DNA of 64,000 bases from NCBI GenBank assembly GCA_041664165.1, contig JBAYLH010000003.1:3247-67246 (forward strand), read 5' to 3'. Below, in pieces: positions 5,549-55,399 of this stretch. The translations under genes were made by a program, and so were the position numbers. Numbering within the stretch: position 1 is the first letter of the stretch; the number at the start of each line of letters is the position of its first letter. This stretch comes from Candidatus Buchananbacteria bacterium (GTDB lineage: Bacteria > Patescibacteriota > Patescibacteriia > Buchananbacterales > UBA6539). The notes beneath the pieces were generated by a model. That model worked only from the letters and a program-made list of their open reading frames with translations, was not told where the DNA came from and made no database searches.

Positions 5549-8500
5549 TTAACCAAAGATACTTTTCTCTTTATTTGGTTCGTCAGCTTTCGGCTCAGCT
5601 GGTTTTTCCATTTTTTCAATTTCAACCGGCGGCACCGATGGTTCCAGCTTAGTTTCAACCGGCGGCACCTGAGCCGTTGCCGAATCAATGTTTGTTTCAA
5701 TATTTTTAACTTTTTCTTCAAGCTGTTCTAAATCCTCTTTTTTCTCCTCAATGTCATGTTTAAGCTGCTCGGCTTGCTGCTTGGCCTTCATTAATTCCTC
5801 CAAAGAATCACGGCCGACTCCCGATAAACTTGGCAGCGGAGTTTGGACTGGCGGAGTCGGTGGCGCCACTGGGGTGATCGGCGGGGTTAAAATAGGTGCC
5901 GACGGCGGAGTCTGGACAGGCGCGGCTGGCGGGCTGCCGGCTTTAGCTTTTTGTAAACCAATATCCAAACTGACTACCGCTTCCTTGTCTTTGCTTAATA
6001 AATCAATCTCATTACTTTTGAAAGGATGATAGCCAAGTTTTTCGGCCGTCACATAATAAATATTGTTATTCACTAAAAACGAATACCGACCCTTGCCATC
6101 AGTTACACGGGTATCCAAAAGCTTATTATATTGCTTATCGTAAATGCGCAAAATCGCCCGCGAAACCGGCTTTCGGTTAGTGTGATCATAAACCATGCCC
6201 CAGTTGCGCGGCGGTTTTTGGTAGCCCAGCCGGCGGAATAAAGCATAAAGCAAACAATGAAAACATAGCATCACCAAAGTAAAAAGGCCGGGACTGATGA
6301 TTAAGGAAATGGTTGCCAACGGAATAGCGGCAAAGGCAGCCAAATATTGGAGCTTGCGCAAATAATATTGGAGGATAATTTTCGCCGCTGGTTTTTCTTC
6401 AATTTGCGGATCAATGGGAATATTGGCAGTAATATCGGCGCGCTGGCCCGTAACTTCAATCGTGCCGCCGTGATACAAGTCCAAATAGCTGACATCTTCT
6501 TTTAAATTTTGGAGATAAGCCGTTGGAAAATCAAATTTCGGCTTAGTCACGGTCAAATAATACCGGCCCGGATCAATCAAAAAGCTGTAACGGCCGAGCT
6601 TATCAGTTACCCGCGACTGGATTAGCCGGTTATTTTCCTTCTGATACAGCCGGACAATCGCCAAATCAACCGGCTGCTTGGTCAGGGCGTTGTAAATCAC
6701 GCCCCATTTTTTGCGACGGCGGCGGAACAGTACCGCAAACGGCTGAGTGATAAAATACTGCAAATAGGAAAAGAAATTAATAAAGGAAAAAGAAGCGAAG
6801 GTATTGACGACAACCGTGGCCACCAAGACCGGGGCGGCGACGGAAACATTGGCCTGCTCAACTTGCGGATTATCAATCACTTTCTCCACAACCTGATCGA
6901 TTATTTCTTTTTGAATAAATTTTTGAATATTTGCCGCTATCTCGGCCGCGCTAATCTCGCTATTATCCAATGGTTTTGAGCAGCCGGAATCGGCCGGGTA
7001 ATCAATTAAACCGTCTCGGTCGTTATCAATGCCATCAAGACACTGAGGTAAGTTAATTTTAAATTCCGGCGGCACGCCGCAGTCGGCCGGACAAGACCAA
7101 GTATTTTCACCGGTTTCGCAAAGCCGGTTGCCGCAGCAAGGCGCCGTCGCCAAACAGCTGCAGCTTGATAAACTGATCTGCTGGCAAATTCCGCAGGCTA
7201 CCTCGCAGCCGGGCTGGCACGAAATTACTTCCGCCGGCCGCCCGATATTTAAATCGCATTTATTAACATCGTAGCATTCGCGCTTTTGCAGCCCATTTTC
7301 GCAAGCGCCCCAGCCTAAGCAGGTCCAGCTTGGCGTACACGGCGTAACGCAGTCTTGCGGGCATGAATTGTTGCTTTCGCCGGTAGCGCAAATACCGTCG
7401 CCGCAGCACGGGATCATTTGTTCGCAAACGCACTGTTCCGCGTTAATCTGCTGGCACTGGCCGCAGCTTAATCCCTGGCAATTGCCATTTGGCCCGCCGT
7501 TGCAAACTTGCTGACTGGCCGGCGGATTAATCGGAACTTGGCAGCCGTTACTGTCAAAACATTGCCGGGTTTGCACCCCGCCGGCCGGCGGACAAACTGC
7601 CGGAGACCATGGCGTGCATTCCCATTGCGAGAGACAGGCAACGTGGCAATCAACGGAACAATTATAAGGATCTTCTCCCGGCGCTTCACAAACGGTATTG
7701 CCGCAACAGTTATTGGTGGCAACGCATTCGCAAGTAACCGGGTTTAGCTGCTGGCAGGTTCCGCAACTGACGCCGGGACAAACCTGGCAGCTTTCCGTGT
7801 ATTCGTAATTGGGCCGGCAAGGCGGAACGGTTTTGTCAACGCAACTTACGGTCAAAGTATCATTTGGCTGGCAAACCCCCGGCGTACAGGAAAAATTCGG
7901 CGTGCAGCTGCAAGCCGGATCACCCGGCGTTGAGCCGTCCGTACAAGTAGAGGCCGGGTAATCACAAAAACCATTGTGGTTGTCATCAAGGCCGTTAGTG
8001 CAATTTTCCACGCCGCCAGTGGTAACGAAAGAACCGGTATGAACCGTCTGTAAAGAGCCGGCACTGGCCGTAATCCGATAATAATAAACCGTATTTGACT
8101 GTAAACCGGTAATATTGTGGCTGAAATTGGTACCCGACAAACCACTGACTGAGCCGTCGCCAACTGCCGGCGTACTCCCCCATTCTAAAATATCAGCGGT
8201 CGGCTGGCATAAAGTTGACCAGCTGACGTTGCCGCTGGTTTGAGCCGCCGCAATTGAAACATTGCTAATCAATAGCTCAATTTGGCAAACTGAAGAACAG
8301 CAATCGCCGGAAACGGTATTGCCGTCATCGCAAGCTTCCCCGGAATCGATAATGCCGTTGCCGCAGCCGACTTCTAGCTGGCAAGCGCCTGAACAGCCAT
8401 CGCCGGAAACGGTATTACCATCATCGCATTCCTCTCCCGAATCTCTAGTCCCGTTGCCGCAGACGGCAATATAACAAGATTGGGTTGACGGCCAATTAGA

Positions 8501-9148
8501 ACAGCCATTGGTGCAAACGCCGCTCTGAACGCCATTAATACATGACCCGTAGCTGCAAACCGTTGCGGTCGGAACACAGACTGGCGTACCGGCTATTTCA
8601 CAAACGCAAGTACTATTGCAAAAATAGCCCGAAGAACAGTCGCCATCGCTCTCACAGCCTTCGCCAGCGTCGATTGTCCCGTTGCCGCAAACCGGACAGG
8701 TACAATTGCTGTTGCAATAATTGTTATAGCAACCGCCGCTAGCCGCATCACTGCCATCGCAGGCTTCTCCGCATTCAGCAATATTATCGCCGCAGACACT
8801 ATCTGCCCGGCTGCAAGTATTATTACAGCCGTCGCAGGAAACGCCATTGCCGTCATCGCAAACTTCGCCGGTGTCGATTGTGCTATTGCCGCAAACCGGA
8901 CAGGTACAATTGCTGTTGCATTGGCCGTTATAGCAGCTACTAGCACCGTCCGTGCCGTCGCAGGTTTCGCCGGTTTCTTTGATGCCGTTGCCGCAAATCG
9001 TTCCCGCCGCTGGCACCGTCGCATTAATGTTAATGGTCGCCGCCAAGGCCTGCTGAACCGAAGGTAAAGCTAAATAAAGAAAAATTAACCCGCCAAGACA
9101 AGTTAAAATAAAACCAAAAAATAAAAATCTTTTACTATCTTTGCTCAT
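5549..9148 (-). CDS. giant cell-surface protein (1199 aa)
   Basis: Long ORF with a signal peptide. It has repeated Cys-rich units of the Myxococcus-type (CGNG-x-D-x-GE-x-CDDGN...DGC). It also has an FN3-like segment and a hydrophobic C-terminal half. That half carries two repeats of TM helix + [10 protein letters not shown](K/G)GRYSF, a carboxypeptidase-regulatory-like fold. A Pro-rich linker and an acidic coiled-coil tail follow. Confidence 0.7.
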
Positions 9149-13386: not shown

Positions 13387-13839
13387 GGGGATGTTTAAAA
13401 ATCGATAGAATCCAAATTTAAAGTTCTCAGATCAAGCATTGAAAATTTGGCTTGTTAATCTCAAATTTTCACCATGATAAGTGCCAAATCACTTGTCGCT
13501 CGAGTAAAAAGTGCTTTCAGTACTTTTGCTCTAGCACCCGTAATGGCCTAAAACCCATTACCATCAGCCCGGCGATACCTAATAACCGGTCACCCGCTTC
13601 GACTCGCGTCGAACTAGGTGCGCCCGCTAAGTCCTAACCGATGAAGCGAGGCGAGCTGGTGTCATAAATTAGGCACGGCAAATTAGTGTCTCACTGACTT
13701 GCTTAAACACCCGAGACTTTGGTTTTAAAGACTTTTGTTAATTTTATACTTTAAAACCGAAACAAAAAAATTGACTACACCTGTAAACCAACTTTGAATT
13801 TCTTTCTAGACAGGGGTGCAATTCCCCTCATCTCCACCA
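13387..13839 (+). ncRNA. ssrA: tmRNA (ssrA), putative
   Basis: It sits immediately downstream of smpB in a 780-bp non-coding gap. The 5' GGGGATG pairs with the 3' CATCTCC-ACCA as a 7-bp acceptor stem that includes the alanine-identity G3:U70 wobble. The T-arm is AGGGG-tgcaatt-CCCCT. CCA is encoded. A helix-2a-like pairing links AAATTTAAAG (13416-13425) with CTTTGAATTT. The hairpin GTAATGG-cctaaaac-CCATTAC places a TAA in its loop, as expected for the tag stop codon. Confidence 0.55.
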
Positions 13840-14077
13840 TTCGACTCGGCTGCCTTCGGCAGCCTCGCTCATGGTCTTTGACCACTTGAAGCCGGCTGAG
13901 TCGAATGGTGCCCCAAGCGACTCTGACCTAGATAAAAAATCGTTTATACTAAAAAATATAACATCTAGATGCCCGCCGAAGAGAGCTACAAATAAAGAGG
14001 CGACCAAAAATAAAAAAAATCTTATTAAATACAAACAGCTAACAAAATTAATAATTAAAAATTAATCAACAAAATCC

Positions 14078-14629: not shown

Positions 14630-14776
14630 TTTTTGCAATTTTTGCAGCTCAAGCTGTTTTTTAATTAACGCGATACTAATCTACCAATTCATACGAATTT
14701 ACTAATATTCGTAGATTAGTATAATTCGCTCACCTCGCTTCGCTCCGGCGAAGCGGGCAGATTAGCATTATACTCT

Positions 14777-15023: not shown

Positions 15024-15371
15024 ATGCCTAGAGTTAAAAGAGGAAAAGCTCATGTTGCCAGACGAAAAAGACTTTTAGCCAAAACTAAAGGTTACCGCTG
15101 GAGCCGAAAAAGCAGCATCAAGGCCGCGAAAACCGCCATCCGTAAAGCCGGAGTTCACGCCTATACCGATCGCAAGAAAAAAAAACGGGTCAACCGCGCT
15201 TTGTGGCAGATTCAAATTAACGCTGCCAGCCGAAGCAATGGTTTAAGCTATTCAAAATTTATTAATTTGCTAAAAGTTAATAAAATCGAATTAGACCGGA
15301 AAGTCCTGGCCGAACTGGCCGGAAAAAATCCGAAAGCTTTTGCCGTCATGGTCGGCCAAATCAAAAAATAA
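15024..15371 (+). CDS. rplT: 50S ribosomal protein L20
   Basis: 115 aa. MPRVKRGKAHVARRKRLL...YTDRKKKKRVNRALWQIQINAA...SYSKFIN matches L20 throughout. Confidence 0.9.
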   Translation: MPRVKRGKAHVARRKRLLAKTKGYRWSRKSSIKAAKTAIRKAGVHAYTDRKKKKRVNRALWQIQINAASRSNGLSYSKFINLLKVNKIELDRKVLAELAGKNPKAFAVMVGQIKK

Positions 15372-15413
15372 TTAGCAATTAAAAAAACTAAATACACAAA
15401 AAAGTTCCAAAGC

Positions 15414-15487
15414 GGAGGCGTAGCTCAGTTGGTTAGAGCGTCTGCCTGTCACGCAGAAGGTCGTGGGTTCGAGCCCCATCGTCTCCG
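15414..15487 (+). tRNA. tRNA-Asp (anticodon GTC)
   Basis: The cloverleaf folds by hand: acceptor GGAGGCG/CGTCTCC, D-arm GCTC-AGTTGGTTA-GAGC, anticodon loop CTGTCAC, T-arm GTGGG-TTCGAGC-CCCAT, discriminator G. CCA is not encoded. Confidence 0.9.
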
Positions 15488-15512
15488 CTTTGGAACTTTT
15501 TTAATTCTTATA

Positions 15513-15754
15513 AGGGCGAAGGCTCAGTTGGTTAGAGCGTCTGCCTGCGCGCCCCGCTTCAATTCAAATAACTAAACTAATCTTTAAAAAATTTGCGAGC
15601 CACAGGCGACTCCGCGCCAGCTAAAAAAATCTTTCGCCAAAAGCACATCGCGAAATTGAGGCGGGGTCACGCAGACCCGCCCGAACAACGGTGATATATT
15701 TAAGTCGTTCAGTCGGGCGGGAGGTCGAGGGTTAGAATCCCATCGTCCCCGCCA
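15513..15754 (+). tRNA. second tRNA-Asp-like copy interrupted by two insertions (intron-containing tRNA or pseudogene)
   Basis: 15522-15547 is identical to positions 10-34 of the adjacent tRNA-Asp (through CTG of the anticodon loop). TCACGCAGA (the rest of the anticodon arm) reappears at 15668-15676, after a ~120-nt insert that ends in G. The variable loop, T-arm and acceptor 3' strand, with encoded CCA, are at 15721-15754. A further ~45-nt hairpin insert (CCCGCCCGAAC...GTTCAGTCGGGCGGG) lies between them. The 5' acceptor strand does not pair well with the 3' strand, and the T-stem has an A:A mismatch. Confidence 0.4.
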
Positions 15755-15891
15755 GATGTCCAAGTTTGAACCCAAATAAAATAAGGGTTTTATACGATTG
15801 AAAAGCCGGTATCCGAACAAGATGCCGGTTTTTTAAACGCTTATCAATAGTTAAGAAAGCTGGTATAATATAAGTAATATAAAATAAACCT

Positions 15892-17691
15892 ATGGATATT
15901 AAATTCAAGGAAAAAATAATCAAGCTTTTCAGAAATGACGCTCGTTTTTGGGATACGGAAAAAGAAGAGCTTAATCAAACTTTACTAAAAGATGCAGTAG
16001 ACAAGTTTGGCGAAAAAGTTATAGAAACTCTTTTGGCTGACTCAGAAGCCAAAAAACAATTTTTTGTAAAAGTTAAAGATGCTTATATTTTTAAACCAAA
16101 TGATTTTAAGTTTTTTCTTGATGAAAACAAACTTGATAATTCATATACTCAACTAGCTAATAAAATCGGACTTGCCACGGAAGAAATTTCCAGCGAAAAG
16201 GTGGTTTTGAATTGGCCGTTTAAGGATTGCGTGCTTGAAGGTGGAATGACCAAGGAAGATGCGATGGATGTTTACTTCAAATATGACACTAAAATCGGTG
16301 AATGGAAAGAAGAAAAAGCCAAAAGAAAAGAAATATTTTTTAATGAGGTATTGGCTCGCGACGAAATAGACAGACTAGAAGAACCGAAAACTTTCTATAA
16401 ATGGAAAAGATTTACAGAAAAGAATTATCAAAAAGGTGAAGATGTTAAAGAAATAAAAAGAGATAAAGACGGAAACATAAAAGAAAATCTTGTTATTAAA
16501 GGCAATAATTTACTCGCCTTGTATTCTCTAAAAGAACAATTTGAAGGAAAAATTAAATTAATTTATATTGACCCTCCTTATAATACTGGCAGCGATAGTT
16601 TTTCTTATAATGATAATTTTAACCATTCTTCTTGGTTAACATTTATGAAGAATAGGTTGCAAGTCGCAAGAAATTTACTTGCAGACGACGGGCTTATTTT
16701 TGTTCAGATAGGACACAATGAACAGGCTTATTTGAGAGTTTTAATGGATGAAGTTTTTAGCCGGGCCAGATTTGTTAATGAAATTACTTGGAAAAAATAT
16801 AGTGGTGTAAAAAATCAAGCAAGCAAAAAGCTTACAACTCAACAAGAAACGATATTCTTATACTCAAAAACTGAGAATTATTCAATTAACATGGTTTATA
16901 ATGAGTTATCTGAAAAATATGTTAAAGATGAATATAAATATATTGATGAAAATGGAAGAAGGTATGCGAAATTAAGAGGTAGAGGATATCAGGGTGGAGG
17001 CAAAGGAACAAAAATAAAATATTTAGATGAAAATTTAGGATCCCCAATAACAACTTTATGGGACGAAGATTTTTTGCAAATCAGCACATCATCTTCAGAA
17101 AAAATTGCAGATTTTGTCGGGCAAAAACCAGAGTCCTTGTTAAAGAGAATAATAGAATTAACAACTAATCCCGGAGATGTGGTTCTAGATTATCATGCCG
17201 GCACGGGAACAACTTGTGCGGTTGCCCATAAAATAGGACGTCAATGGATTGGTGTGGAACAATTGGATTATTCAGAAAATAATCCTGAGGAAAGAATGAG
17301 AGGTGTGATTGCTGGTGATAAAAACGGAATTTCCAAAGGGGTAAATTGGAAAGGTGGCGGTGATTTTATTTATATTCAACTCGCAAAATGGAACGAGGAG
17401 GCAAAAGAGAAAATTGCTGAAGTAAAGTCATATGACGAACTAACAAAACTTTTTGCCAATTTGTATGAAAAATATTTTCTTAACTACAACGTCAAGGCAA
17501 AAGATTTTAAAGAAAATGATATAAAAAGTGAGGAATTTAAAAAAATATCTTTGTCTGAGCAAAAAAAGATGGTCGCCCGCATGCTTGATCTCAATCAGAT
17601 GTATATAAACTTTAGCGAGAGGAAAGATAAAAAGTACAACCTTTTAAAAGATGATATTGCTTTGAGTGAGGAGTTTTATGATAAGAAATAG
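15892..17691 (+). CDS. mod: type III restriction-modification DNA methyltransferase (Mod), beta-class N6A/N4C MTase
   Basis: 599 aa. Motif IV IDPPYNTG precedes motif I (VLDYHAGTGTTCAVA), the circular-permuted order typical of type III Mod. It is translationally coupled to the downstream Res gene (stop/start 2 nt apart). Confidence 0.85.
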   Translation: MDIKFKEKIIKLFRNDARFWDTEKEELNQTLLKDAVDKFGEKVIETLLADSEAKKQFFVKVKDAYIFKPNDFKFFLDENKLDNSYTQLANKIGLATEEISSEKVVLNWPFKDCVLEGGMTKEDAMDVYFKYDTKIGEWKEEKAKRKEIFFNEVLARDEIDRLEEPKTFYKWKRFTEKNYQKGEDVKEIKRDKDGNIKENLVIKGNNLLALYSLKEQFEGKIKLIYIDPPYNTGSDSFSYNDNFNHSSWLTFMKNRLQVARNLLADDGLIFVQIGHNEQAYLRVLMDEVFSRARFVNEITWKKYSGVKNQASKKLTTQQETIFLYSKTENYSINMVYNELSEKYVKDEYKYIDENGRRYAKLRGRGYQGGGKGTKIKYLDENLGSPITTLWDEDFLQISTSSSEKIADFVGQKPESLLKRIIELTTNPGDVVLDYHAGTGTTCAVAHKIGRQWIGVEQLDYSENNPEERMRGVIAGDKNGISKGVNWKGGGDFIYIQLAKWNEEAKEKIAEVKSYDELTKLFANLYEKYFLNYNVKAKDFKENDIKSEEFKKISLSEQKKMVARMLDLNQMYINFSERKDKKYNLLKDDIALSEEFYDKK

Positions 17692-17693
17692 TT

Positions 17694-20462
17694 ATGCCTG
17701 AAAAATATCTTTACGAAGAATTAAAAGAAAAGGCTTTTGATTATGGTATCTCAAAATCGCAGATACCTGATTTTATTGTTGATAATTTGAAGTATCCTTT
17801 ATTTGCTTGGCAAAAAAATGCCATAGAAAATTTTTTAACTTATGAGGAAATTAGAAAAGAAGAAGGTGGTTTGAAGCCACTGCATTTAATGTTTAATATG
17901 GCTACGGGTACTGGAAAAACATTGGTTATGGCGGCCCTGATCTTGTATTTTTATAAAAAAGGGTATAAGAATTTTATATTTTTTGTAAATCAAAACAATA
18001 TTGTTGATAAAACAGAAAATAATTTTATTAACAAAAGCCATAGCAAATATCAATTTAAACAGAATATTGTCATAGATAATAAAACAGTGCAAATAAAAAA
18101 AGTTGATACTTTTTTATCGAAATCGGAAGATATTCAAATAAAGTTTACTTCTATTCACAAACTCCATAATGCCGTATATTTAGCAAAAGAAAACTCTGTT
18201 TTTTTGGAGGAGTTGCAACGACAAGATTTAATTATGTTGGGAGATGAAGCTCATCATTTTAATGCTACTACTAAGAAGAATAAACCCGTCCAGTTAAGCT
18301 TATCCGGTGAATTGTCGGAGAGCGCAAGTCAGGAAGAAATTGAAAAGAGTTGGGAAGATACAGCTATTAATAAAATTTTAAAAAGGGGCAATAATAATAA
18401 AAATAAGCAAAATAATAACGCCCTTTTGGAGTTTACGGCGACAATACCGAGAGATCAGAGTGTAGACGATAAATATAGAGATAAAATTATTTATAAGTTT
18501 ACTCTAGAAAGCTTTCTTGACGCTGGTTATACCAAAGAAATCAATCTGGTCTCTTCAACTCTTAATAAAAAAGAACGAATTTTGTCGGTTTTATTATTGA
18601 ATTGGTATCGGCATAGTATAGCAGTAAAAAATAACCTACCGAATTTTAAGCCGGTTATTTTGTTTAGAAGTAAAACAATTGAAGATTCTAGAAAAGATTT
18701 TGATGAATTTTTGGATATTGTAAAAAAGCTTTAAAAAGACGATTTTAATTTTTTAAACTCAATAGACAAAAATTTCTTTGAGGGTGGAAATTTGTTTGAT
18801 AAAGGGAAGAGTAAAATTTTGGCAATGACCAGATTTATCAAGAATGAAAATATTAAATTCCCTGAAATCATTAACTGGATAAAATATTCATTTGCGGATA
18901 GAAATTGTTTGATAACCAACTCAAAAGATAATAAGAAAAAAAATAAAGAAGAAACCGATGAAGATCAAGATAGATTGCTTAACAGCTTGGAAGATCAAGA
19001 TAATCATATACGAGCAATTTTTACTGTTAAAAGATTGACTGAAGGGTGGGATGTTTTAAACTTATTTGACATAGTTCGTCTTTATGAAGGCCGTGATGAG
19101 TGGCATGATAAAAAAACTGGCGAAAGGAATGCTGGGGATTCCACCATCTCAGAGATTCAGTTAATTGGTAGAGGCGTGCGATATTTCCCTTTTAAATACC
19201 AAGACAAAGAAGCAAATAAGAGAAAATTTGATAATGATTTAGACAATCCGATGCGAGTATTGGAAGAATTTGACTTTCATTGTTTTGACGATAATCGTGG
19301 ACACTTTATAGATGAGCTTAAGCGTGAATTGAAACGTAAGGGGTTTATAAAAGAAACTAAGGTTAGAAAAAAGTTTGAATTAAAAACAGATTTTAAGAAT
19401 TCTGAGTTTTATAAAACAGTTAAAATTTTTTTAAACCATAAAATTGAAAATGTTAACAAACGTAAAAACAGTCTCAAAGAAATAAGGAGTGGCTTGAATT
19501 TTGAATATAGGTTAAAAACTTTCTCAATTAAAGAAGAACAAGTTAAATTAGGGAACAAAGAAGATGCGACACTTTTGGAAACCATAGGTGATGAAATGAA
19601 AACTCTGACCGTGAAATTAAATAGTTTTGAAAAAAATATCGTATATAAAGCGCTGAATATACATGCGAAAAAAGATAACTCGCTATATCGTTTCGATCAT
19701 CTTGCTTCCGAGTTTGAAGTTGAAAGTATTGATGAATTATTCAAAGAGGACATTTTAGGTGATATAAAAATAAATCTGGTCACATCTTCCAGTGTAAAAA
19801 AATTAGATAATGTTAATCAAGGCGAAAAATTAGGTATCCTACTCGCTTTTTTTGAGAAGTTAGAGGCTGAATTAAAGACAGTAAGTAATCCATATCTCGG
19901 CACAGAATTTAATGGTGTAAAATTTTCTGAAATTTTTGGAGGTACAAAAGAAAAAGCCGTAGAAATAGATGAGGAGAGCGAAAGAATAGAAAAAGAGTTA
20001 AAAGAACAAGACTGGTATGTCCTTAGTGGTTTTAATGGTACAAGCGAAGAAAGGTGTTTAATTGATTTTTTGAAAGAAAAAATTGGTAATCTAAAATCAA
20101 AATACGAAGAAGTATATTTACTCAGAAATGAAGAGATATACAAAATTTATGATTTTGAAAGAGGACGCGGTTTTCAACCGGATTTCTTACTGTTTTTAAA
20201 ACGTAGTAAACAAAGATTATATTACCAAGTTTTCATTGAGCCAAAGGGTTCGCAGTTCGCTGATAGAAGTGGTATTTTTGTAGAAAGTAAAGAGGCATGG
20301 AAAGAAGATTTTTTGAAAGAAATTACTAGGAGATATTCTGAAAAAGAAGTACTAAAAATGGAAAATAATCAGTACAAACTCATTGGCTTACCACTGTTTA
20401 ATGAGAGAATAAAAACAGATTTTGACAATGAATTTAATAGGCAGGTTTTGGAAGCTATTTAA
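17694..20462 (+). pseudogene. res: type III restriction enzyme Res subunit, interrupted by one in-frame TAA (18732-18734)
   Basis: ORFs 17694..18734 and 18792..20462 are in the same frame and are separated only by TAA at 18732-18734, which I checked codon by codon. The N-terminal half has helicase motif I (NMATGTGKT) and the DEAH box (LGDEAHH). The C-terminal half has motif VI (LIGRGVRY) and a PD..EPK nuclease motif (QPDF...FIEPKG). Combined length is ~922 codons, typical for Res. Confidence 0.75.
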
Positions 20463-20610
20463 TCGAATAATCCACCTCATTTTTGCCTTTAATTGACTTT
20501 GGCTTGGGTGTCTCAAACCATTCAGGATGAACTTTGAAGATACGCCTTAATTCCTGTATACTATTATCAATATCCTTGAATTTGAGCCACTTTTTCGGTT
20601 CAAAGTTGCG

Positions 20611-20627
20611 GGACATCGTCTCCGCCA
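20611..20627 (+). repeat. degenerate direct repeat of the tRNA-Asp 3' end (possible island att-site remnant)
   Basis: GGTTCAAAG...GGGACATCGTCTCCGCCA matches the tRNA-Asp T-loop/acceptor 3' end (CATCGTCTCCGC, 12/12). It lies just past the R-M genes and is followed by a terminator hairpin CGCCTAACCGGCG-T7. Confidence 0.4.
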
Positions 20628-20677
20628 TTCAAAATAATCGCCTAACCGGCGATTTTTTGTTTTTTTTATTTGTCTAA

Positions 20678-48888: not shown

Positions 48889-48911
48889 ACTTAGTAATTA
48901 GGAAGTTAGTC

Positions 48912-49010
48912 CCGCACCTATTTTACTGATTACCATTAAGCTTAAAAAATATTTTATTTAATAAAAAGTTTGATTTCAATTATAGATTGATTAATAAAAT
49001 AGGTGCGGGA
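48912..49010. promoter_or_regulatory. 19-bp perfect inverted repeat TAGTCCCGCACCTATTTTA ... TAAAATAGGTGCGGGACTA between pyk and ppsA
   Basis: The arms are at 48912-48930 and 48992-49010, separated by ~60 nt of AT-rich sequence. They share the core CACCTATTTT/AAAATAGGTG with the hairpin upstream of groES. Confidence 0.6.
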
Positions 49011-50498
49011 CTAAATCGTTTCCACTTTAACCAAATTGGTCTGGCCCAAAAAGCCAAAAGGATGGCCCGCGGCGATAACCACAATATCGCCTTTGCTAAC
49101 CAGCCGCTTGCTGATTAACAAATTCTTAATTTTAGCCATTAAGTCATTAAACGAGGAAACAAAAGGCAGATAATAGGAATTGACGCCCCAGCTTAAGCAA
49201 AGCTGATTTTTGGTTTTTTCCGAAGCCGCCAGCGCGACTACGGTGATATTGGGTCGGTATTTGGCAATTGACCGGGCGGTGAAACCGGAAGTCGTGGCGC
49301 AGACAATCAATTTGGCGCCAGTCTCGGCGGCAATTTTTTCCACCGCAAAGCTGACCGTTTCGGTAATTCCGCCGATTTTTTTTAAGCTATTTTCAATTTG
49401 CTGATGCTCTTCAATTTCGGTTTTTTCCACTTCATTGGCGATCCGCGTCATCACTTGCACCGCCTTGAGCGGGTACTTGCCGGTGGCGGTTTCCCCTGAA
49501 AGCATGATCGCGTCCGTGCCGTCTAAAATCGCGTTAGCCACGTCGGAAACTTCCGCCCGGGTTGGCACCGGATAGCGGATCATTGAATCAAGCATTTGCG
49601 TCGCAACAATGACCGGTTTGGCTTCCTGAACGCAGCGCCGGACAATTTTTTTCTGAATTAATGGCAAATCCTCCAGCGGAATTTCCAAACCCAAATCGCC
49701 GCGCGCTACCATAATGCCGTCGGCCACTTTCAAAATTTCTTCAAAATGAGCCACCGCTTCCGCCCGCTCGATTTTGGCAATGACTTTGGTCTGAGTTATC
49801 GGCACGCTCCCGCCGCGGTTGGGCTTTTTGAAATCTTTGTCTTTGCGGCCGAGCCTTGATTCAAGCCGGTGAATATTTTTTTTCAATTCGATAATATCCG
49901 ATTCATCTTTGACAAAAGACAGGGCAATAAAATCAACTCCTTGTTTTAAGCCGAACCTCAAGTCTTCCATGTCTTTTTGAGTTACCGGTTTGGCTTTAAT
50001 TTCCGACTTCGGAAAATTCATTCCTTTGTGGGCATAAATAATATCGCCAATTTTAACTTTGCAGCGAATCGCTTTATTTTTTATCGCAACTACCTCCAAT
50101 TCAATTTTGGCATCATCAATTAAAACCGGATTGCCGGGTTTTAAATCACGGTACAAACCGGGGTATTGAATCGGAATGAAAGCTGAAACATCTTTGAGGG
50201 AAATCCGAAAATTTTCCGGCACCAAATAGATAAACTCGCCGGCTTCGACTTTAATGCCTTCGGCGGCAATGTTGCCGGTGCGAATCCGCGGCCCCTGCAA
50301 ATCCTGCAAAATAGCGACCGGCTGGCCGGTTTTAGCCGCTACCTTTCTGAGATTATTAATCAGCAAGGTATGGTGTTTGTAAGTGCCATGGGAAAAATTA
50401 AGCCGGGCAACATTAAGCCCGGATTTAACCATCAGTTCGATTTTACTTTTGGTCTCCGAGGCCGGACCGATCGTGCAGACGATTTTGGTTCTTTTCAT
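49011..50498 (-). CDS. pyk: pyruvate kinase
   Basis: 495 aa. MKRTKIVCTIGPAS...NVARLNFSHG...QDLQGPRIRTG is canonical. Confidence 0.9.
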   Translation of the reverse strand: MKRTKIVCTIGPASETKSKIELMVKSGLNVARLNFSHGTYKHHTLLINNLRKVAAKTGQPVAILQDLQGPRIRTGNIAAEGIKVEAGEFIYLVPENFRISLKDVSAFIPIQYPGLYRDLKPGNPVLIDDAKIELEVVAIKNKAIRCKVKIGDIIYAHKGMNFPKSEIKAKPVTQKDMEDLRFGLKQGVDFIALSFVKDESDIIELKKNIHRLESRLGRKDKDFKKPNRGGSVPITQTKVIAKIERAEAVAHFEEILKVADGIMVARGDLGLEIPLEDLPLIQKKIVRRCVQEAKPVIVATQMLDSMIRYPVPTRAEVSDVANAILDGTDAIMLSGETATGKYPLKAVQVMTRIANEVEKTEIEEHQQIENSLKKIGGITETVSFAVEKIAAETGAKLIVCATTSGFTARSIAKYRPNITVVALAASEKTKNQLCLSWGVNSYYLPFVSSFNDLMAKIKNLLISKRLVSKGDIVVIAAGHPFGFLGQTNLVKVETI

Positions 50499-53082: not shown

Positions 53083-53202
53083 CTCGAAGCCGAAATAATA
53101 ACCCTCGGCTTCTTTTTTTATTACTATTACCGAAAGCCGAGGCAACTTGCCTCGGCTTCAATATTCGTAGATTCGGATTTATTAGTAAATTCGCATCGCG
53201 CT

Positions 53203-54858
53203 TTACATCATGCCCATGCCGCCCATACCCGGATTCATCCCGCCGTGGTCATGGCCTTCTTTTTCCGGCAAATCAGTGACCAAAGCTTCCATGGTAATCA
53301 AGGTCGTGGCAATTGAAGAAGCGTTCTCCAAGGCCGTTCTGGTAACTTTCATCGGATCGACAATCCCCGCCTCCAACATATCAACTTTTTTCATCGTGTT
53401 GAAGTCATAACCGGAATTGGCGTCATTAATTTCTTTAATTTCATTTAAAATCAAGGAAATATCTTTCAAGCCGGCGTTAGCCGCGATTTGGCGTAATGGC
53501 GCCGTTAAGGCCTGCTGGATAATTTTCGCGCCGACTTTTTCGTCATCGGTTAATTCAACTTTATATTCTTTGAGTAAATCATTCAAAGCATTGGCGACTT
53601 TGACTAAGGCCGCGCCGCCTCCCGGGACAATTCCTTCGGCCACGGCGGCCTTGGTCGCGTTGAGTGCGTCTTCAATTTTGAATTTCTTTTCTTTCATTTC
53701 CGTTTCCGTCGCCGCGCCGACTTTGATGACGCCGACCCCGCCGGAAAGTTTCGCCAGTCTTTCCACTAATTTTTCTTTATCAAATTCCGAATCGGATTTG
53801 GCAATTTCATTTTTGATTTGAGCCACCCGCGCTTCAATCTTTTTCTTGTCGCCTTTGCCGTCAATAATCGTCGTGTATTCTTTGGTCGCAACCACTTTTC
53901 TGGCCTGGCCTAGCTGTTCAATTTCCGTTTTTTCCAGTTTTAAACCTAAATCTTCGGAAATTACCGTACCGCCGGTCAAAGCCGCGATATCATTTAGCAT
54001 TTCTTTGCGGCGGTCGCCAAAGCCCGGAGCTTTAACGCCCAAGACATTAAAAGTACCGCGGAGTTTATTAACCACAAAAGTGGCTAAAGCTTCGCCTTCA
54101 ATTTCATCGCCGATAATTACCAGCTCTTTTTTGCCGCTTTGGGCGATTTTTTCCAAAAGCGGTAAAATATCGCGAACAGCGGAAATTTTTTGGTCGGTAA
54201 TTAAAATGTAAGGTTCTTCAAAATCCGCTTCCATCCGTTCGGGATTGGTAACCATGTAGGCGGAAACAAAACCTTTGTCAAACCGCATGCCCTGAACCAC
54301 TTCTTTTTGCAAGCCGAAAGTCGGGCTTTCTTCAACTGTTACCACGCCGTCTTTGCCGACTTCGGTCATAATGTCGGCAATCATCTGGCCGACTTCCGGG
54401 TCTAGCGAAGAAATCGTCGCGACTTGGGCGACTTCTTTTTGATCCTTAATTGGCCGGGTAATTTTTTTCAAGCCTTCAATAACGACTTTGACGGTTTTTT
54501 GAATTCCGGTTTTCAAAGCTACCGGATCGGTACCGGCCGCCACGTTTTTCAAGCCCTCTTCAATAATCGCCTGGGCCAAAACCGTCGCGGTCGTAGTGCC
54601 GTCGCCGGCAACGTCATTGGTTTTTTCCGCCACTTCCTTGATCAAAGAAGCGCCGATATTTTCAAATTTGTCTTCCAATTCGATTTCTTTGGCAATCGTC
54701 ACGCCGTCGTTAGTAATTATCGGCGAACCAAAGCCTTTGTCCAAAACCACGTTTCGGCCTTTCGGGCCCAAACTGACTTTAACGGCATCGGCGACCTGGT
54801 CGATCCCCTTTTTGACCGCCGCACGAGCCTTTTCATTAAAAAGTAATTGTTTTGCCAT
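53203..54858 (-). CDS. groL: chaperonin GroEL
   Basis: 551 aa. [27 protein letters not shown], the [11 protein letters not shown] motif and a C-terminal GGM repeat tail. Confidence 0.95.
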
Positions 54859-54971
54859 ATAATTTTGATTATTTATTAATTTAAGTTGTGTGTTTGATTC
54901 TAATCTACAAATTATGGATGCGAATCTGCGAATATTTGTAGATTCGGATGTATTCGTAGATTAGTATTGCG

Positions 54972-55247
54972 CTATTCAATGACGGCTAAAACGTCTTCGT
55001 CGCTTAAAATTTTGTATTCCTGGTCATCGACTTTGACTTCTTCCCCGGCATATTTGCCGAAAATTACTTTGTCGCCGGTTTTTAAACCCAGCTTAGTGAT
55101 TTTTTCGCCGTCGCCGATGGCCAAAACTTTGCCTTCCGCTTTTTTTTCTTTATCAATGGTGTCCGGCAAGATAATGCCGGATTTAGTGGTTTCTTCTTCG
55201 CTTAAAGCTTCAACCACGATTCTGTTGCCCAAGGGTTTTAGTTTCAT
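54972..55247 (-). CDS. groS: co-chaperonin GroES
   Basis: 91 aa. MKLKPLGNRIVVE...GIILPD...GKVLAIGDG. Confidence 0.95.
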   Translation of the reverse strand: MKLKPLGNRIVVEALSEEETTKSGIILPDTIDKEKKAEGKVLAIGDGEKITKLGLKTGDKVIFGKYAGEEVKVDDQEYKILSDEDVLAVIE

Positions 55248-55336: not shown

Positions 55337-55399
55337 TTAACCCCCACACCTATTTTTTTATATATTCTACACCGTCTAAAAAATAGGTGTGGGGGTTAA
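55337..55399. promoter_or_regulatory. 22-bp inverted repeat TTAACCCCCACACCTATTTTTT...AAAAAATAGGTGTGGGGGTTAA in the groES leader
   Basis: A perfect stem with a ~20-nt loop, located between CIRCE and the groES start. Its core CACCTATTTT/AAAATAGGTG is shared with the pyk-ppsA inverted repeat. Confidence 0.6.

Follow-up and report, generated by a model that had tools for sequence, protein, structure and literature searches.

The window analysed here, a 64-kb stretch of DNA from a member of Candidatus Buchananbacteria, contains an intact tRNA-Asp gene and, 25 nt downstream of it, a second tRNA-Asp(GUC)-like sequence (15512-15754, + strand), which holds two inserts, ends in CCA and forms the left-hand junction with a 4.9-kb island of type III restriction-modification genes (15755-20613). 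The second sequence is referred to below as the relic, and its inserts as ins1 and hp2. The locus comprises the following features:

15398-15502, + strand: functional tRNA-Asp(GUC) with its flanks; the gene itself is 15414-15488, without encoded CCA (ARAGORN; Rfam RF00005, 71.2 bits)
15512-15547, + strand: 5' part of the relic, beginning with the acceptor 5' strand AAGGGCG (15512-15518), then AAG
15522-15547, + strand: within that part, the D arm (15522-15538), the anticodon stem 5' strand (15540-15544) and C32 U33 G34 (15545-15547)
15548-15666, + strand: ins1, a palindromic element of 119 nt inserted between G34 and U35, ending in G
15667-15675, + strand: U35 C36 A37 C38 and the anticodon stem 3' strand of the relic, TCACGCAGA, an exact match to 15449-15457 of the intact gene
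15676-15721, + strand: hp2, a 46-nt GC-clamped hairpin, CCCGCCCGAACAACG...CGTTCAGTCGGGCGGG, in the variable region at 44/45 (-20.8 kcal/mol)
15722-15754, + strand: 3' part of the relic, with the variable loop AGGTC, the T arm GAGGG-TTAGAAT-CCCAT, the acceptor 3' strand CGTCCCC, G73 and encoded CCA
15741-15754, + strand: left direct repeat (attL core), CATCGTCCCCGCCA, the last 14 nt of the relic, matching 20614-20627 at 13/14 positions
15755-15772, + strand: left terminal inverted repeat, GATGTCCAAGTTTGAACC, aligning with the reverse complement of 20597-20617
15802-15836, + strand: intrinsic-terminator-like hairpin (-18.3 kcal/mol), then TTTTTT
15892-17691, + strand: mod
17694-18734 and 18792-20462, + strand: res, split
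20597-20617, + strand: right terminal inverted repeat, GGTTCAAAGTTGCGGGACATC
20614-20665, + strand: displaced 3' end of the ancestral tRNA-Asp, CATCGTCTCCGCCA (20614-20627), and ancestral terminator (20628-20665); attR

The leader (15398-15413) and trailer (15487-15502) of the intact gene are complementary to each other, which lengthens the acceptor stem by 16 bp ahead of a T run, and the inverted repeat around the gene spans 23 nt with 96% complementarity. The same allele serves as the intact tRNA-Asp of the relatives L003, L009, L106 and L118, and almost all multi-fragment arrays occur in genomes whose intact tRNA-Asp has a paired leader and trailer. Promoter-like sites were identified upstream of rpmI (14698-14725) and next at 15841-15869, and the hairpin at 15802-15836 probably ends an rpmI-rplT-tRNA-Asp transcription unit that would include the relic. 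As the relic lies between the rpmI-upstream promoter-like site and this predicted terminator, it is probably co-transcribed with rpmI-rplT-tRNA-Asp.

The initial annotation had recognised a second, split tRNA-Asp-like gene at this locus, and all the segments it described are present, with small shifts in coordinates. The segment from the D arm to CTG (15522-15547) is indeed an exact 26-nt copy of 15423-15448, a repeat with a chance expectation of 0.00 in the window, and the rest of the anticodon arm was correctly identified but occupies 15667-15675, not 15668-15676. The anticodon-loop insert ending in G, estimated at about 120 nt, measures 119 nt; the variable-region hairpin, estimated at about 45 nt, measures 46 nt; and the 3' segment of AGGTC, T arm, acceptor 3' strand and GCCA spans 15722-15754, where 15721-15754 had been proposed. 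The relic sequence is identical base for base in three assemblies, including two independent ones of this organism, L102 (JGI) and L103 (ENA), which excludes an assembly artefact. The mismatches reported earlier in the 5' acceptor strand and the T-stem correspond to A1.C72, A2.C71 and A50.A64. In addition, the spacer between the acceptor stem and the D-stem is 3 nt long, not 2, U8 is replaced by A, and the T loop (TTAGAAT) carries A in place of C56.

Two computational checks had been suggested, ARAGORN with intron and pseudogene modes and a search of the inserts against Rfam group I/II intron models, and neither recovered a functional or intron-containing tRNA. At its default stringency, ARAGORN made no call on the native relic in either the standard or the intron mode, and the sequence from which both inserts had been cut out in silico was called at the pseudogene threshold only (-ps95). 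Neither insert matched a group I or II intron model, and Rfam searches of 15505-15760, at the gathering threshold and at E<=10, returned no tRNA (RF00005), group I/II intron or ribozyme, the upstream intact gene being the sole match reported in the region. Among 11 related arrays (E<=0.05), Rfam reported intact tRNAs and tmRNAs and nothing else. Judged by its RF00005 score and by the conserved U8, G18G19 and U54U55C56, the relic does not qualify as a functional tRNA, and it gives no usable tRNA. The spliced sequence is nearest to the plain CCA-encoding allele of L005 (70/77), and comparison of the alleles identifies the relic as the putative former resident CCA-encoding tRNA-Asp gene, functionally replaced by the intact copy upstream.

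The junction sequences indicate that the island integrated into the last 14 nt of this former resident gene. Imperfect inverted repeats lie just inside the direct repeats, and the far end (20615-20665) shows 41/44 identity to the tRNA-Asp 3' end and terminator of L005. No matches to the downstream synteny (sortase, YggT, R-M genes) were found in the flanks of the relatives compared, and the island is therefore delimited solely via the L005 tRNA-end and terminator match. The cargo (15892-20462) contains the Pfam domains N6_N4_Mtase, TypeIII_RM_meth and ResIII. Direct repeats and a native downstream flank at the far end, as expected of a tRNA-gene island, are both present, but no integrase, transposase or recombinase was found in the island, whose 556-aa and 57-aa ORFs have no family match. 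In L115 and L116, too, a decorated tRNA-Asp copy is followed by the junction CCAGATTACCAACTTTGAACC, and the cargo there is different. One of the two explanations first offered for the locus, a decayed copy created by island integration, is borne out by these junctions, with the relic on the left and the displaced 3' end and terminator on the right.

In the larger insert, ins1, a GC-clamped stem of 13-15 bp (CCCCGCTTCAATT / AATTGAGGCGGGG) closes the element, the inner helix CGCG:CGCG is invariant and the interior is A/T-rich. In at least five other lineages, tRNA-Asp fragments hold homologues at 34/35, as in L086 (two copies), L113/L115/L116, L118 and L008; the count is seven copies in five lineages, every one at 34/35. 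Using the covariance model R1, an inverted ins1 was also detected in the D loop of the L007 5' fragment (66.8 bits on the minus strand versus 26.7 on the plus strand). In the closing stem, 5 of 15 pairs vary on both sides while 99% of cells remain paired, a result equalled by 0 of 500 shuffles. All non-Watson-Crick pairs in this stem are G.U on the tRNA strand (approximately 5, versus 0-1 A.C), and this bias hints at a possible RNA-level constraint. Across the automatically found stems overall, G.U outnumbered A.C by 13 to 5, an asymmetry that is suggestive at most because many of these stems are spurious. Pattern scanning of metagenomes with GGGTCACGCAGA-N-GGGAGGTCG gave 21 loci; only L085 and L086 were true matches, the other 19 having arisen by chance in genomes of high GC content. 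A scan of viral contigs for the ins1 signature gave 0 matches. Likewise, ins1 had no match in Rfam and no predicted promoter, and its weak minus-strand terminator-like site (15612-15597) is not conserved among homologues. A link to colicin-E5-type cleavage at 34/35 was considered and dropped, as no feature supports it.

Homologues of the smaller insert, hp2, split tRNA fragments in L004/L107, L086, L109, L120, L121, L127, L128 and L130, and a GIY-YIG ORF adjoins the hairpin in most hp2-bearing loci of relatives. The recurrent canonical unit, of which this hairpin is the hallmark, was found at tRNA-Asp, Thr, Ile and Val genes and consists of a 5' tRNA-X fragment split by the hairpin, a GIY-YIG ORF and an intact tRNA-X; at tRNA-Asp this arrangement occurs in L004/L107, L109 and L120. 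In four further GIY-YIG homologue clusters sampled, the ORF lies directly upstream of an intact tRNA in 4/4. The intact tRNA downstream of the ORF is tRNA-Thr in L121, tRNA-Ile in L127, tRNA-Val in L128 and tRNA-Ile in L130; upstream of the ORF, each of these loci has a matching 5' tRNA fragment into which hp2 is inserted at 9/10 or 20/21, and in three of these four units the ORF stop codon falls inside the tRNA. The ORFs are minimal (approximately 80 aa), of the UPF0213/YhbQ type and without a DNA-binding domain (PF01541, E ~1e-14); that of L107 (3148-3411) encodes 87 aa. L119 and L120, which share an identical L20 protein, provide an empty and an occupied allele, the former with a plain tRNA-Asp and the latter with a fragment, hairpins, a GIY-YIG ORF and an intact tRNA. 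The intact tRNA beside the L120 ORF is identical to the naive allele of L119, which argues against a simple homing endonuclease whose donor is immune. L109 presents a nested case: inside an outer split gene (GGACCGG...CCGGTCC) lie a GIY-YIG ORF, which is truncated, and an intact tRNA-Asp that represents another allele.

The layout in the window departs from the canonical unit, with the intact gene first and then a near-full-length relic, and with hp2 at 44/45, not 9/10 or 20/21. A tblastn search of the 64-kb window detected no GIY-YIG homologue. Among the loci compared, each of the two inserts is found in either orientation and in more than one loop, and in L115, L118 and L086 the inserts sit in fragments unable to form any tRNA. 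Literature searches found no description of this architecture.

Collectively, we favour, with a probability of roughly 0.65, the reading that the relic is a dead former tRNA-Asp at the left junction of the island and that its inserts are palindromic modules of families accompanying GIY-YIG genes in relatives. Sequence comparison places the inserts as members of conserved hairpin-element families, tied to GIY-YIG genes that occupy tRNA genes of related genomes, and not as products of random decay. Because the window holds no GIY-YIG gene, it would be by hairpin homology alone that ins1 and hp2 are tied to a GIY-YIG element. An ordinary integration scar is an unlikely alternative: an attL tRNA duplicate, relaxed by tandem duplication, would have received generic REP/MITE-like palindromes with no GIY-YIG link. 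The clear island junctions suit such a scar, as do the lack of a GIY-YIG gene in the window and the presence there of further long intergenic palindromes (48906-49014 and 55337-55399), which have weak similarity to R1 (30.9 bits). However, the hp2 signature was confined to tRNA fragments among the 134 loci compared, with a GIY-YIG ORF directly adjacent in seven independent units (the full and small sample of GIY-YIG loci examined); ins1 occupies exactly 34/35 in five lineages; and no second copy of hp2 or ins1 exists within the 64-kb window. Measured against MITEs, the picture is mixed: ins1 and hp2 have terminal inverted repeats and occur in both orientations, no junction has a target-site duplication, and the copies are not dispersed in the window.

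It is quite improbable that the inserts act as RNA-level intervening sequences, the decorated copy being a functional tRNA-like RNA (serving, for instance, as a decoy, as a scaffold for processing or to supply fragments) and the hairpins transcribed loop extensions that are recognised or removed by RNase III, as in the intervening sequences (IVSs) of 23S rRNA and the short non-intron insertions of CPR rRNA. Each insert lies in a cloverleaf loop (D, anticodon, variable or T) and none in a stem, covariation is seen in the stems, where G.U is tolerated on the tRNA strand and A.C hardly at all, the relic is probably transcribed, and the full nested array of L020 folds as concentric helices, all of which would agree with a role in RNA. 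Short insertions that are not introns are also numerous at the tips of stem-loops in CPR rRNA genes (PMC11270868). Nevertheless, invariant tRNA positions decay while the hairpins remain perfect, ins1 and hp2 occur in either orientation and in various loops, and the modules of relatives reside in fragments from which the acceptor or D arm is missing, so that no common RNA architecture is conserved. Moreover, cleavage at 34/35 without ligation could not yield a decoding tRNA. The relic shows the hairpin-in-loop geometry of rRNA-type IVSs, in a host RNA that is not functional. The other explanation first offered, a tRNA with unusual intervening sequences, is not supported, in view of the lack of an Rfam match, the pseudogene-level ARAGORN call, the mutated invariant positions and the occurrence of the inserts, in relatives, within tRNA fragments unable to form any tRNA.

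A functional intron-containing tRNA-Asp, with ins1 self-splicing (group I-like) or of the bulge-helix-bulge (BHB) type and the variable-arm hairpin tolerated or spliced, has a negligible probability: 34/35 is among the sites that group I introns occupy in bacterial tRNA genes (this part of the initial annotation stands, unlike its suggestion of a group I intron), a boundary can be drawn as U33|G...G|G34 and the copy ends in CCA, but there is no match to RF00028 or any other intron or ribozyme even at E<=10, a 119-nt insert with one long stem and an A/U-rich interior is too small and simple for a group I core, inspection of the sequence reveals no BHB geometry at either junction, the spliced product escapes default detection with U8, C56 and G1-C72/G2-C71 lost, and an intact tRNA-Asp lies just upstream. 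A group I intron would need a P1-P9 core of more than about 200 nt and an RF00028 match, whereas ins1 offers a closing stem and a 4-bp inner helix. A BHB intron or split tRNA was rejected because neither 15547/15548-15666/15667 nor 15675/15676-15721/15722 has a 3-nt bulge, 4-bp helix and 3-nt bulge.

Under the favoured reading of a dead tRNA-Asp bearing modules of GIY-YIG-associated families, a nuclease cassette may spread by break-and-repair or recombination, with the tRNA sequence as homology. Because the cassette would carry a copy of the tRNA 5' part, an intact tRNA would be regenerated downstream, whereas a hairpin-capped dead fragment would stay behind. Unequal recombination among the repeated tRNA pieces could subsequently produce fragment arrays, and loss of the ORF could leave hairpin-only relics such as 15512-15754. 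More tentatively, Patescibacteria may harbor an undescribed intron-free selfish element that resides in tRNA genes of many identities and consists of a minimal Slx1/UPF0213-like GIY-YIG nuclease and a GC-clamped hairpin. Such an element would keep the gene alive by duplicating its 5' part, resulting in a dead hairpin fragment, an ORF and an intact tRNA; it could borrow the tRNA promoter, and the U8-A9-G10 (TAG) of the tRNA may often serve as the ORF stop codon. The hairpin may represent a cis-acting cruciform substrate of the structure-specific nuclease or a target-breaking insertion. The ins1 and hp2 of the window would then be ORF-less derivatives, and the nested and arrayed tRNA-Asp fragments of relatives may be a fossil record of repeated invasions.

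Genomic islands at tRNA genes reportedly leave scars in which direct repeats of the tRNA 3' end form attL and attR (Reiter 1989; Williams 2002). Similarly, the window has a 4.9-kb cargo between two tRNA-Asp 3' ends (13/14 nt), a terminator displaced to the far junction and symmetric inverted repeats flanking the core; in contrast to such scars, the island has no integrase, the attL copy is dead and carries two structured inserts, and a second, separately flanked tRNA-Asp is functional. Palindromic mobile elements of AT-rich genomes include REP/BIME sequences, Rickettsia palindromic elements, mitochondrial GC clusters and double-hairpin elements. Like these, ins1 and hp2 are short palindromes that are rich in GC although the genome is AT-rich (42% GC), occur in either orientation and belong to families that keep compensatory stem changes. 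However, they are not dispersed, being confined in the sequences compared to tRNA-derived fragments, at defined loop positions and with a link to a nuclease.

In phage T4, a cluster of tRNA genes contains the gene for SegB, a free-standing homing endonuclease of the GIY-YIG family; the enzyme's target is a conserved motif of tRNAs, the T-psi-C stem-loop, and the segB gene is co-inherited with neighbouring tRNA genes (PMC2330249). The GIY-YIG gene of relatives is likewise embedded among tRNA genes, but the predicted nuclease ORFs of Patescibacteria are chromosomal, approximately 80 aa long and without a DNA-binding domain, and their units include a partial 5' tRNA duplication and a GC-clamped hairpin. 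In CPR rRNA genes, short (<200 bp) ORF-less non-intron insertions occur at the tips or bases of stem-loops, and GIY-YIG proteins are encoded by some insertions that belong to neither the group I nor the group II introns; tRNA genes are outside the scope of that study, the word 'tRNA' being absent from its main text (PMC11270868). The organism group and the insertion into structural RNA genes are the same, but the rRNA genes concerned are functional and their insertions presumably removed or tolerated, whereas here the host tRNA copy is dead or only a fragment, with an intact copy supplied next to it. Archaea possess split, tri-split and multi-intron tRNA genes as well as transposing tRNA introns (PMC10714607; PMC4090602; PMC3978253). 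As with archaeal tRNA introns, inserts are found in D, anticodon, variable and T loops, with the same insert at differing positions across genes, and the tRNA gene halves of L020 carry complementary GC-rich extensions like Nanoarchaeum half-genes. In contrast to the archaeal systems, the host is a bacterium, there is no BHB motif or sign of splicing, and the interrupted copies are decayed or incomplete, with an uninterrupted gene always present.

For annotation, 15512-15754 should be recorded as a pseudogene, neither a second tRNA-Asp nor a bacterial tRNA intron. The wider pattern concerns ultra-small bacteria whose tRNA genes are usually single-copy: essential tRNA genes are repeatedly invaded and replaced, and hairpin-capped fragments remain. 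If confirmed as a mobile element, the GIY-YIG/hairpin unit would help explain the abundance of non-intron insertions in CPR RNA genes, give a testable role to the enigmatic stand-alone UPF0213/YhbQ nucleases and advise caution against reading bacterial split or nested tRNA genes as archaeal-style split tRNAs. If the GIY-YIG/hairpin unit is mobile, it would represent a third way to parasitise an essential RNA gene, by 5' duplication instead of splicing, in addition to self-splicing introns and integrases that restore the 3' end.

The host is a Buchananbacteria-like member of the Patescibacteria; its L20 protein shares 79% identity with the nearest one in the genome collection, and the studied region is matched base for base in two other assemblies. 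The local gene order is smpB, tmRNA (13387-13839), infC, rpmI, rplT (15024-15371), an intact tRNA-Asp(GUC) (15414-15488) and a second tRNA-Asp-like sequence (15512-15754), which comprises the following segments:

15522-15547: D arm through G34, a 26-nt exact copy of the intact tRNA-Asp
15548-15666: ins1, a 119-nt insert at position 34/35
15667-15675: the piece TCACGCAGA, following ins1
15676-15721: hp2, a 46-nt hairpin in the variable region
15722-15754: AGGTC, T arm, acceptor 3' strand and GCCA

The initial annotation, which had described tRNA-Asp-like segments split by two inserts, was right about their existence (0.00 exact 26-nt repeats are expected by chance) and about the coordinates of the first piece, but placed the second and third pieces one base off each.

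Several observations show that the copy is in a pseudogene state. An Rfam search of 15300-15900 returned the upstream tRNA alone, with nothing else near any family threshold and no intron or ribozyme. At default stringency, ARAGORN reported nothing in the copy whether or not introns were allowed, and excising both inserts exactly did not change this; the spliced sequence was called as tRNA-Asp(GTC) solely at the 95% (pseudogene) threshold. The earlier suggestion of a tRNA with unusual intervening sequences is thus not upheld. In the resulting cloverleaf, A1.C72 and A2.C71 are mismatched in the acceptor stem, three nucleotides separate the acceptor and D stems, with U8 changed to A, and the T arm has an A50.A64 mismatch and a TTAGAAT loop that has lost C56. 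In contrast, ins1 and hp2 are near-perfect stem-loops (-32.2 and -20.8 kcal/mol, respectively), indicating decay of the tRNA scaffold around inserts that remain intact.

The copy directly adjoins a 4.9-kb type III restriction-modification island (15755-20613), whose cargo between two repeats of the tRNA end is a mod gene and a split res gene. Its junctions are as follows:

15755-15772: left imperfect inverted repeat, GATGTCCAAGTTTGAACC
20597-20617: right imperfect inverted repeat, GGTTCAAAGTTGCGGGACATC
20614-20627: 14-nt repeat of the copy's 3' end, CATCGTCTCCGCCA (13/14), followed by a terminator

The stretch 20615-20665 shares 41/44 positions with the 3' end and terminator of the plain, CCA-encoding tRNA-Asp of a relative (L005; L numbers denote homologous loci or genomes). 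The in-silico spliced relic is likewise nearest to the L005 allele (70/77), and the intact upstream tRNA-Asp is the allele of L003, L009, L106 and L118. These end repeats, inverted repeats and allele affinities identify the copy as a former resident gene at the island's left junction; judged from sequence, the upstream intact gene probably superseded it. The other proposal of the initial annotation, a decayed copy tied to island integration, is therefore supported. The left junction CCAGATTACCAACTTTGAACC also lies behind the decorated tRNA-Asp copies of L115 and L116, with other cargo, which opens with a protein (MKGFPNQVADL...; L115 949-1473, L116 791-1141) that matches no Pfam or NCBIfam family. 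No recombinase gene was found in the island. Two pieces make up res within 15892-20462: the helicase part of 346 aa (17694-18734), and an ORF of 556 aa with a TTG start (18792-20462) and no family match. Either a frameshift has turned the gene into a pseudogene or the enzyme is made in two parts.

Both inserts belong to families that recur in relatives. Homologues of ins1 occupy the exact 34/35 position in L086 (twice), L113/L115/L116, L118 and L008, and in the 15-bp closing stem five pairs are changed on both sides with 99% of cells paired, a level reached by 0/500 shuffles. A covariance model built from ins1 (R1) detects an inverted copy in the D loop of a 5' fragment in L007 (66.8 bits on the minus strand vs 26.7 on the plus strand). 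The hp2 hairpin (CCCGCCCGAAC...GTTCAGTCGGGCGGG) lies in tRNA-Asp fragments, in the D loops of L004, L086 and L120 and the T loop of L109; its signature occurs only inside tRNA fragments among the 134 loci examined, and its asymmetric bulge flips orientation between loci. Arrays of hairpin-capped tRNA-Asp pieces flank one intact gene on both sides in L003, L004, L007, L019, L020 and L086. Nested arrangements also occur: in L020, a tRNA-Asp split after G34 carries an insert whose complementary arms enclose an intact tRNA-Asp, and in L109, an outer split gene surrounds a truncated GIY-YIG ORF together with an inner tRNA-Asp that represents another allele.

Arrays are almost wholly limited to genomes whose intact tRNA-Asp, mostly CCA-less, bears a helix of 13-19 bp between leader and trailer. 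Of 13 such lineages, 11 show fragments or arrays, whereas most of the ~30 genomes in which tRNA-Asp is plain and CCA-encoding lack a fragment and none has an array. The working tRNA-Asp of the window has this helix (15398-15420/15480-15502), its complementary leader and trailer lengthening the acceptor stem and ending in a T run. The helix is also present in L003, L004, L007, L009, L010, L019, L020, L086, L106, L109, L115 and L118, varying in sequence by genome while pairing is maintained. Most of these genes encode no CCA, in contrast to the plain genes of ~30 other Patescibacteria. The arrangement resembles a tRNA set within a helix of the terminator or RNase III type.

Small GIY-YIG ORFs (PF01541, E ~1e-14; closest solved relatives the UPF0213 proteins 1ywl and 1zg2) lie within the arrays of L004/L107, L109 (truncated) and L120. 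In L120, a 5' fragment with two hairpins is followed by the ORF and an intact tRNA-Asp; L119 has an identical L20 protein and a plain tRNA-Asp, the two forming an occupied/empty allele pair. Four further homologue clusters (60-76% identical, unrelated contigs) brought the sample to seven independent units. In all four, the ORF lies directly 5' of an intact tRNA (L121, Thr; L127, Ile-GAT; L128, Val-TAC; L130, Ile(TAT) by ARAGORN) and is directly preceded by a 5' fragment of the same tRNA with an hp2-type hairpin at 9/10 or 20/21. The ORF ends inside the tRNA in 3/4, and in L121 and L130 its stop codon is the tRNA's own U8-A9-G10. The unit of hairpin-bearing fragment, GIY-YIG ORF and intact tRNA thus occurs at five tRNA identities. 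No GIY-YIG homologue was found in the 64-kb window, so its hp2 and ins1 are ORF-less relics. In L069 (8040-8345), a tRNA-like 5' fragment through the T loop (..CGAGGGTTCAAAA) runs straight into the ATG of a GIY-YIG ORF, after which a fresh copy of the same 5' end (GGGTCCG) begins; this would be a unit with ORF entry at the T loop. Genes for 23S_rRNA_IVP (PF05635), a protein typically encoded within 23S rRNA intervening sequences, lie near tRNA-Asp and GIY-YIG loci (L106 3194-3571, L128 1-237).

At the window's tmRNA gene, a long GC-rich hairpin (13835-13910) likewise begins within the terminal CACCA, with no GIY-YIG ORF beside it. In several relatives (L107 ~1210-1300, L040 2810-2925, L068 2830-2935), a repeated CACCA and then, between ssrA and infC, a small GIY-YIG ORF come after this hairpin, extending the association to the tmRNA gene. 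Elsewhere in the window, copies of a 48-62-nt motif (AATATTCGTAGATTnGnAT...) occur both as direct and as inverted repeats (14661-14722, 54918-54979; also 14704-14751, 53160-53207, 54931-54978); one copy overlaps a promoter-like site (14698-14725) upstream of rpmI, and the motif may function as a common promoter or operator. The stretch 7100-9000 contains several families of direct repeats, 32-87 nt long and with many GCCGCAG/TCGCA motifs, which presumably belong to the coding sequence of a large repetitive minus-strand protein that is possibly Cys-rich.

Some weight remains with an RNA-level explanation, which takes the inserts for IVS-like hairpins of a tRNA-like RNA that is itself functional: they are found in loops without exception, mismatched stem positions are G.U on the tRNA strand, and the copy lies within a probable transcription unit. 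The orientation flips, decaying scaffold and fragmentary hosts argue against this explanation. An integration scar with unrelated palindromes and nothing more would fit the faint ins1 likeness of other long window palindromes (48906-49014, 55337-55399), but is weakened by the exclusive tie of hp2 and ins1 to tRNA fragments and GIY-YIG ORFs. These intergenic palindromes have 25-bp and 22-bp arms, both with CACCTATTTT...AAAATAGGTG, around the cores GTCCCGCAC and CCCCCACAC, respectively; the former scores 30.9 bits with R1 and resembles the L020 insert arms (CGTCCCGCACTAAAATATTT), and both may be stand-alone elements related to the tRNA-associated hairpins. A spliceable intron in the copy is essentially excluded.

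The nearest precedents include tRNA-targeted island integration. In addition, the T4 GIY-YIG endonuclease SegB recognises a conserved tRNA motif and carries tRNA genes along (PMC2330249), CPR rRNA genes contain non-intron insertions that sometimes encode GIY-YIG proteins (PMC11270868), and archaea have split and intron-transposing tRNAs (PMC10714607). However, each lacks the full combination of partial 5' tRNA duplication, GC-clamped hairpin and minimal GIY-YIG ORF, of which we found no description in the part of the literature covered.

Collectively, these features suggest a nuclease cassette that may spread by break-repair or recombination on tRNA homology, restoring the tRNA gene through a carried copy of its 5' part. 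The intact tRNA beside the L120 ORF is identical to the naive L119 allele, which argues against simple homing with an immune donor. Unequal recombination among repeated tRNA pieces could have built the arrays, and loss of the ORF would leave hairpin-only relics. The hairpin may break the nuclease target, form a cruciform on which a structure-specific nuclease of the Slx1-like kind could act, or provide insulation at the RNA level.
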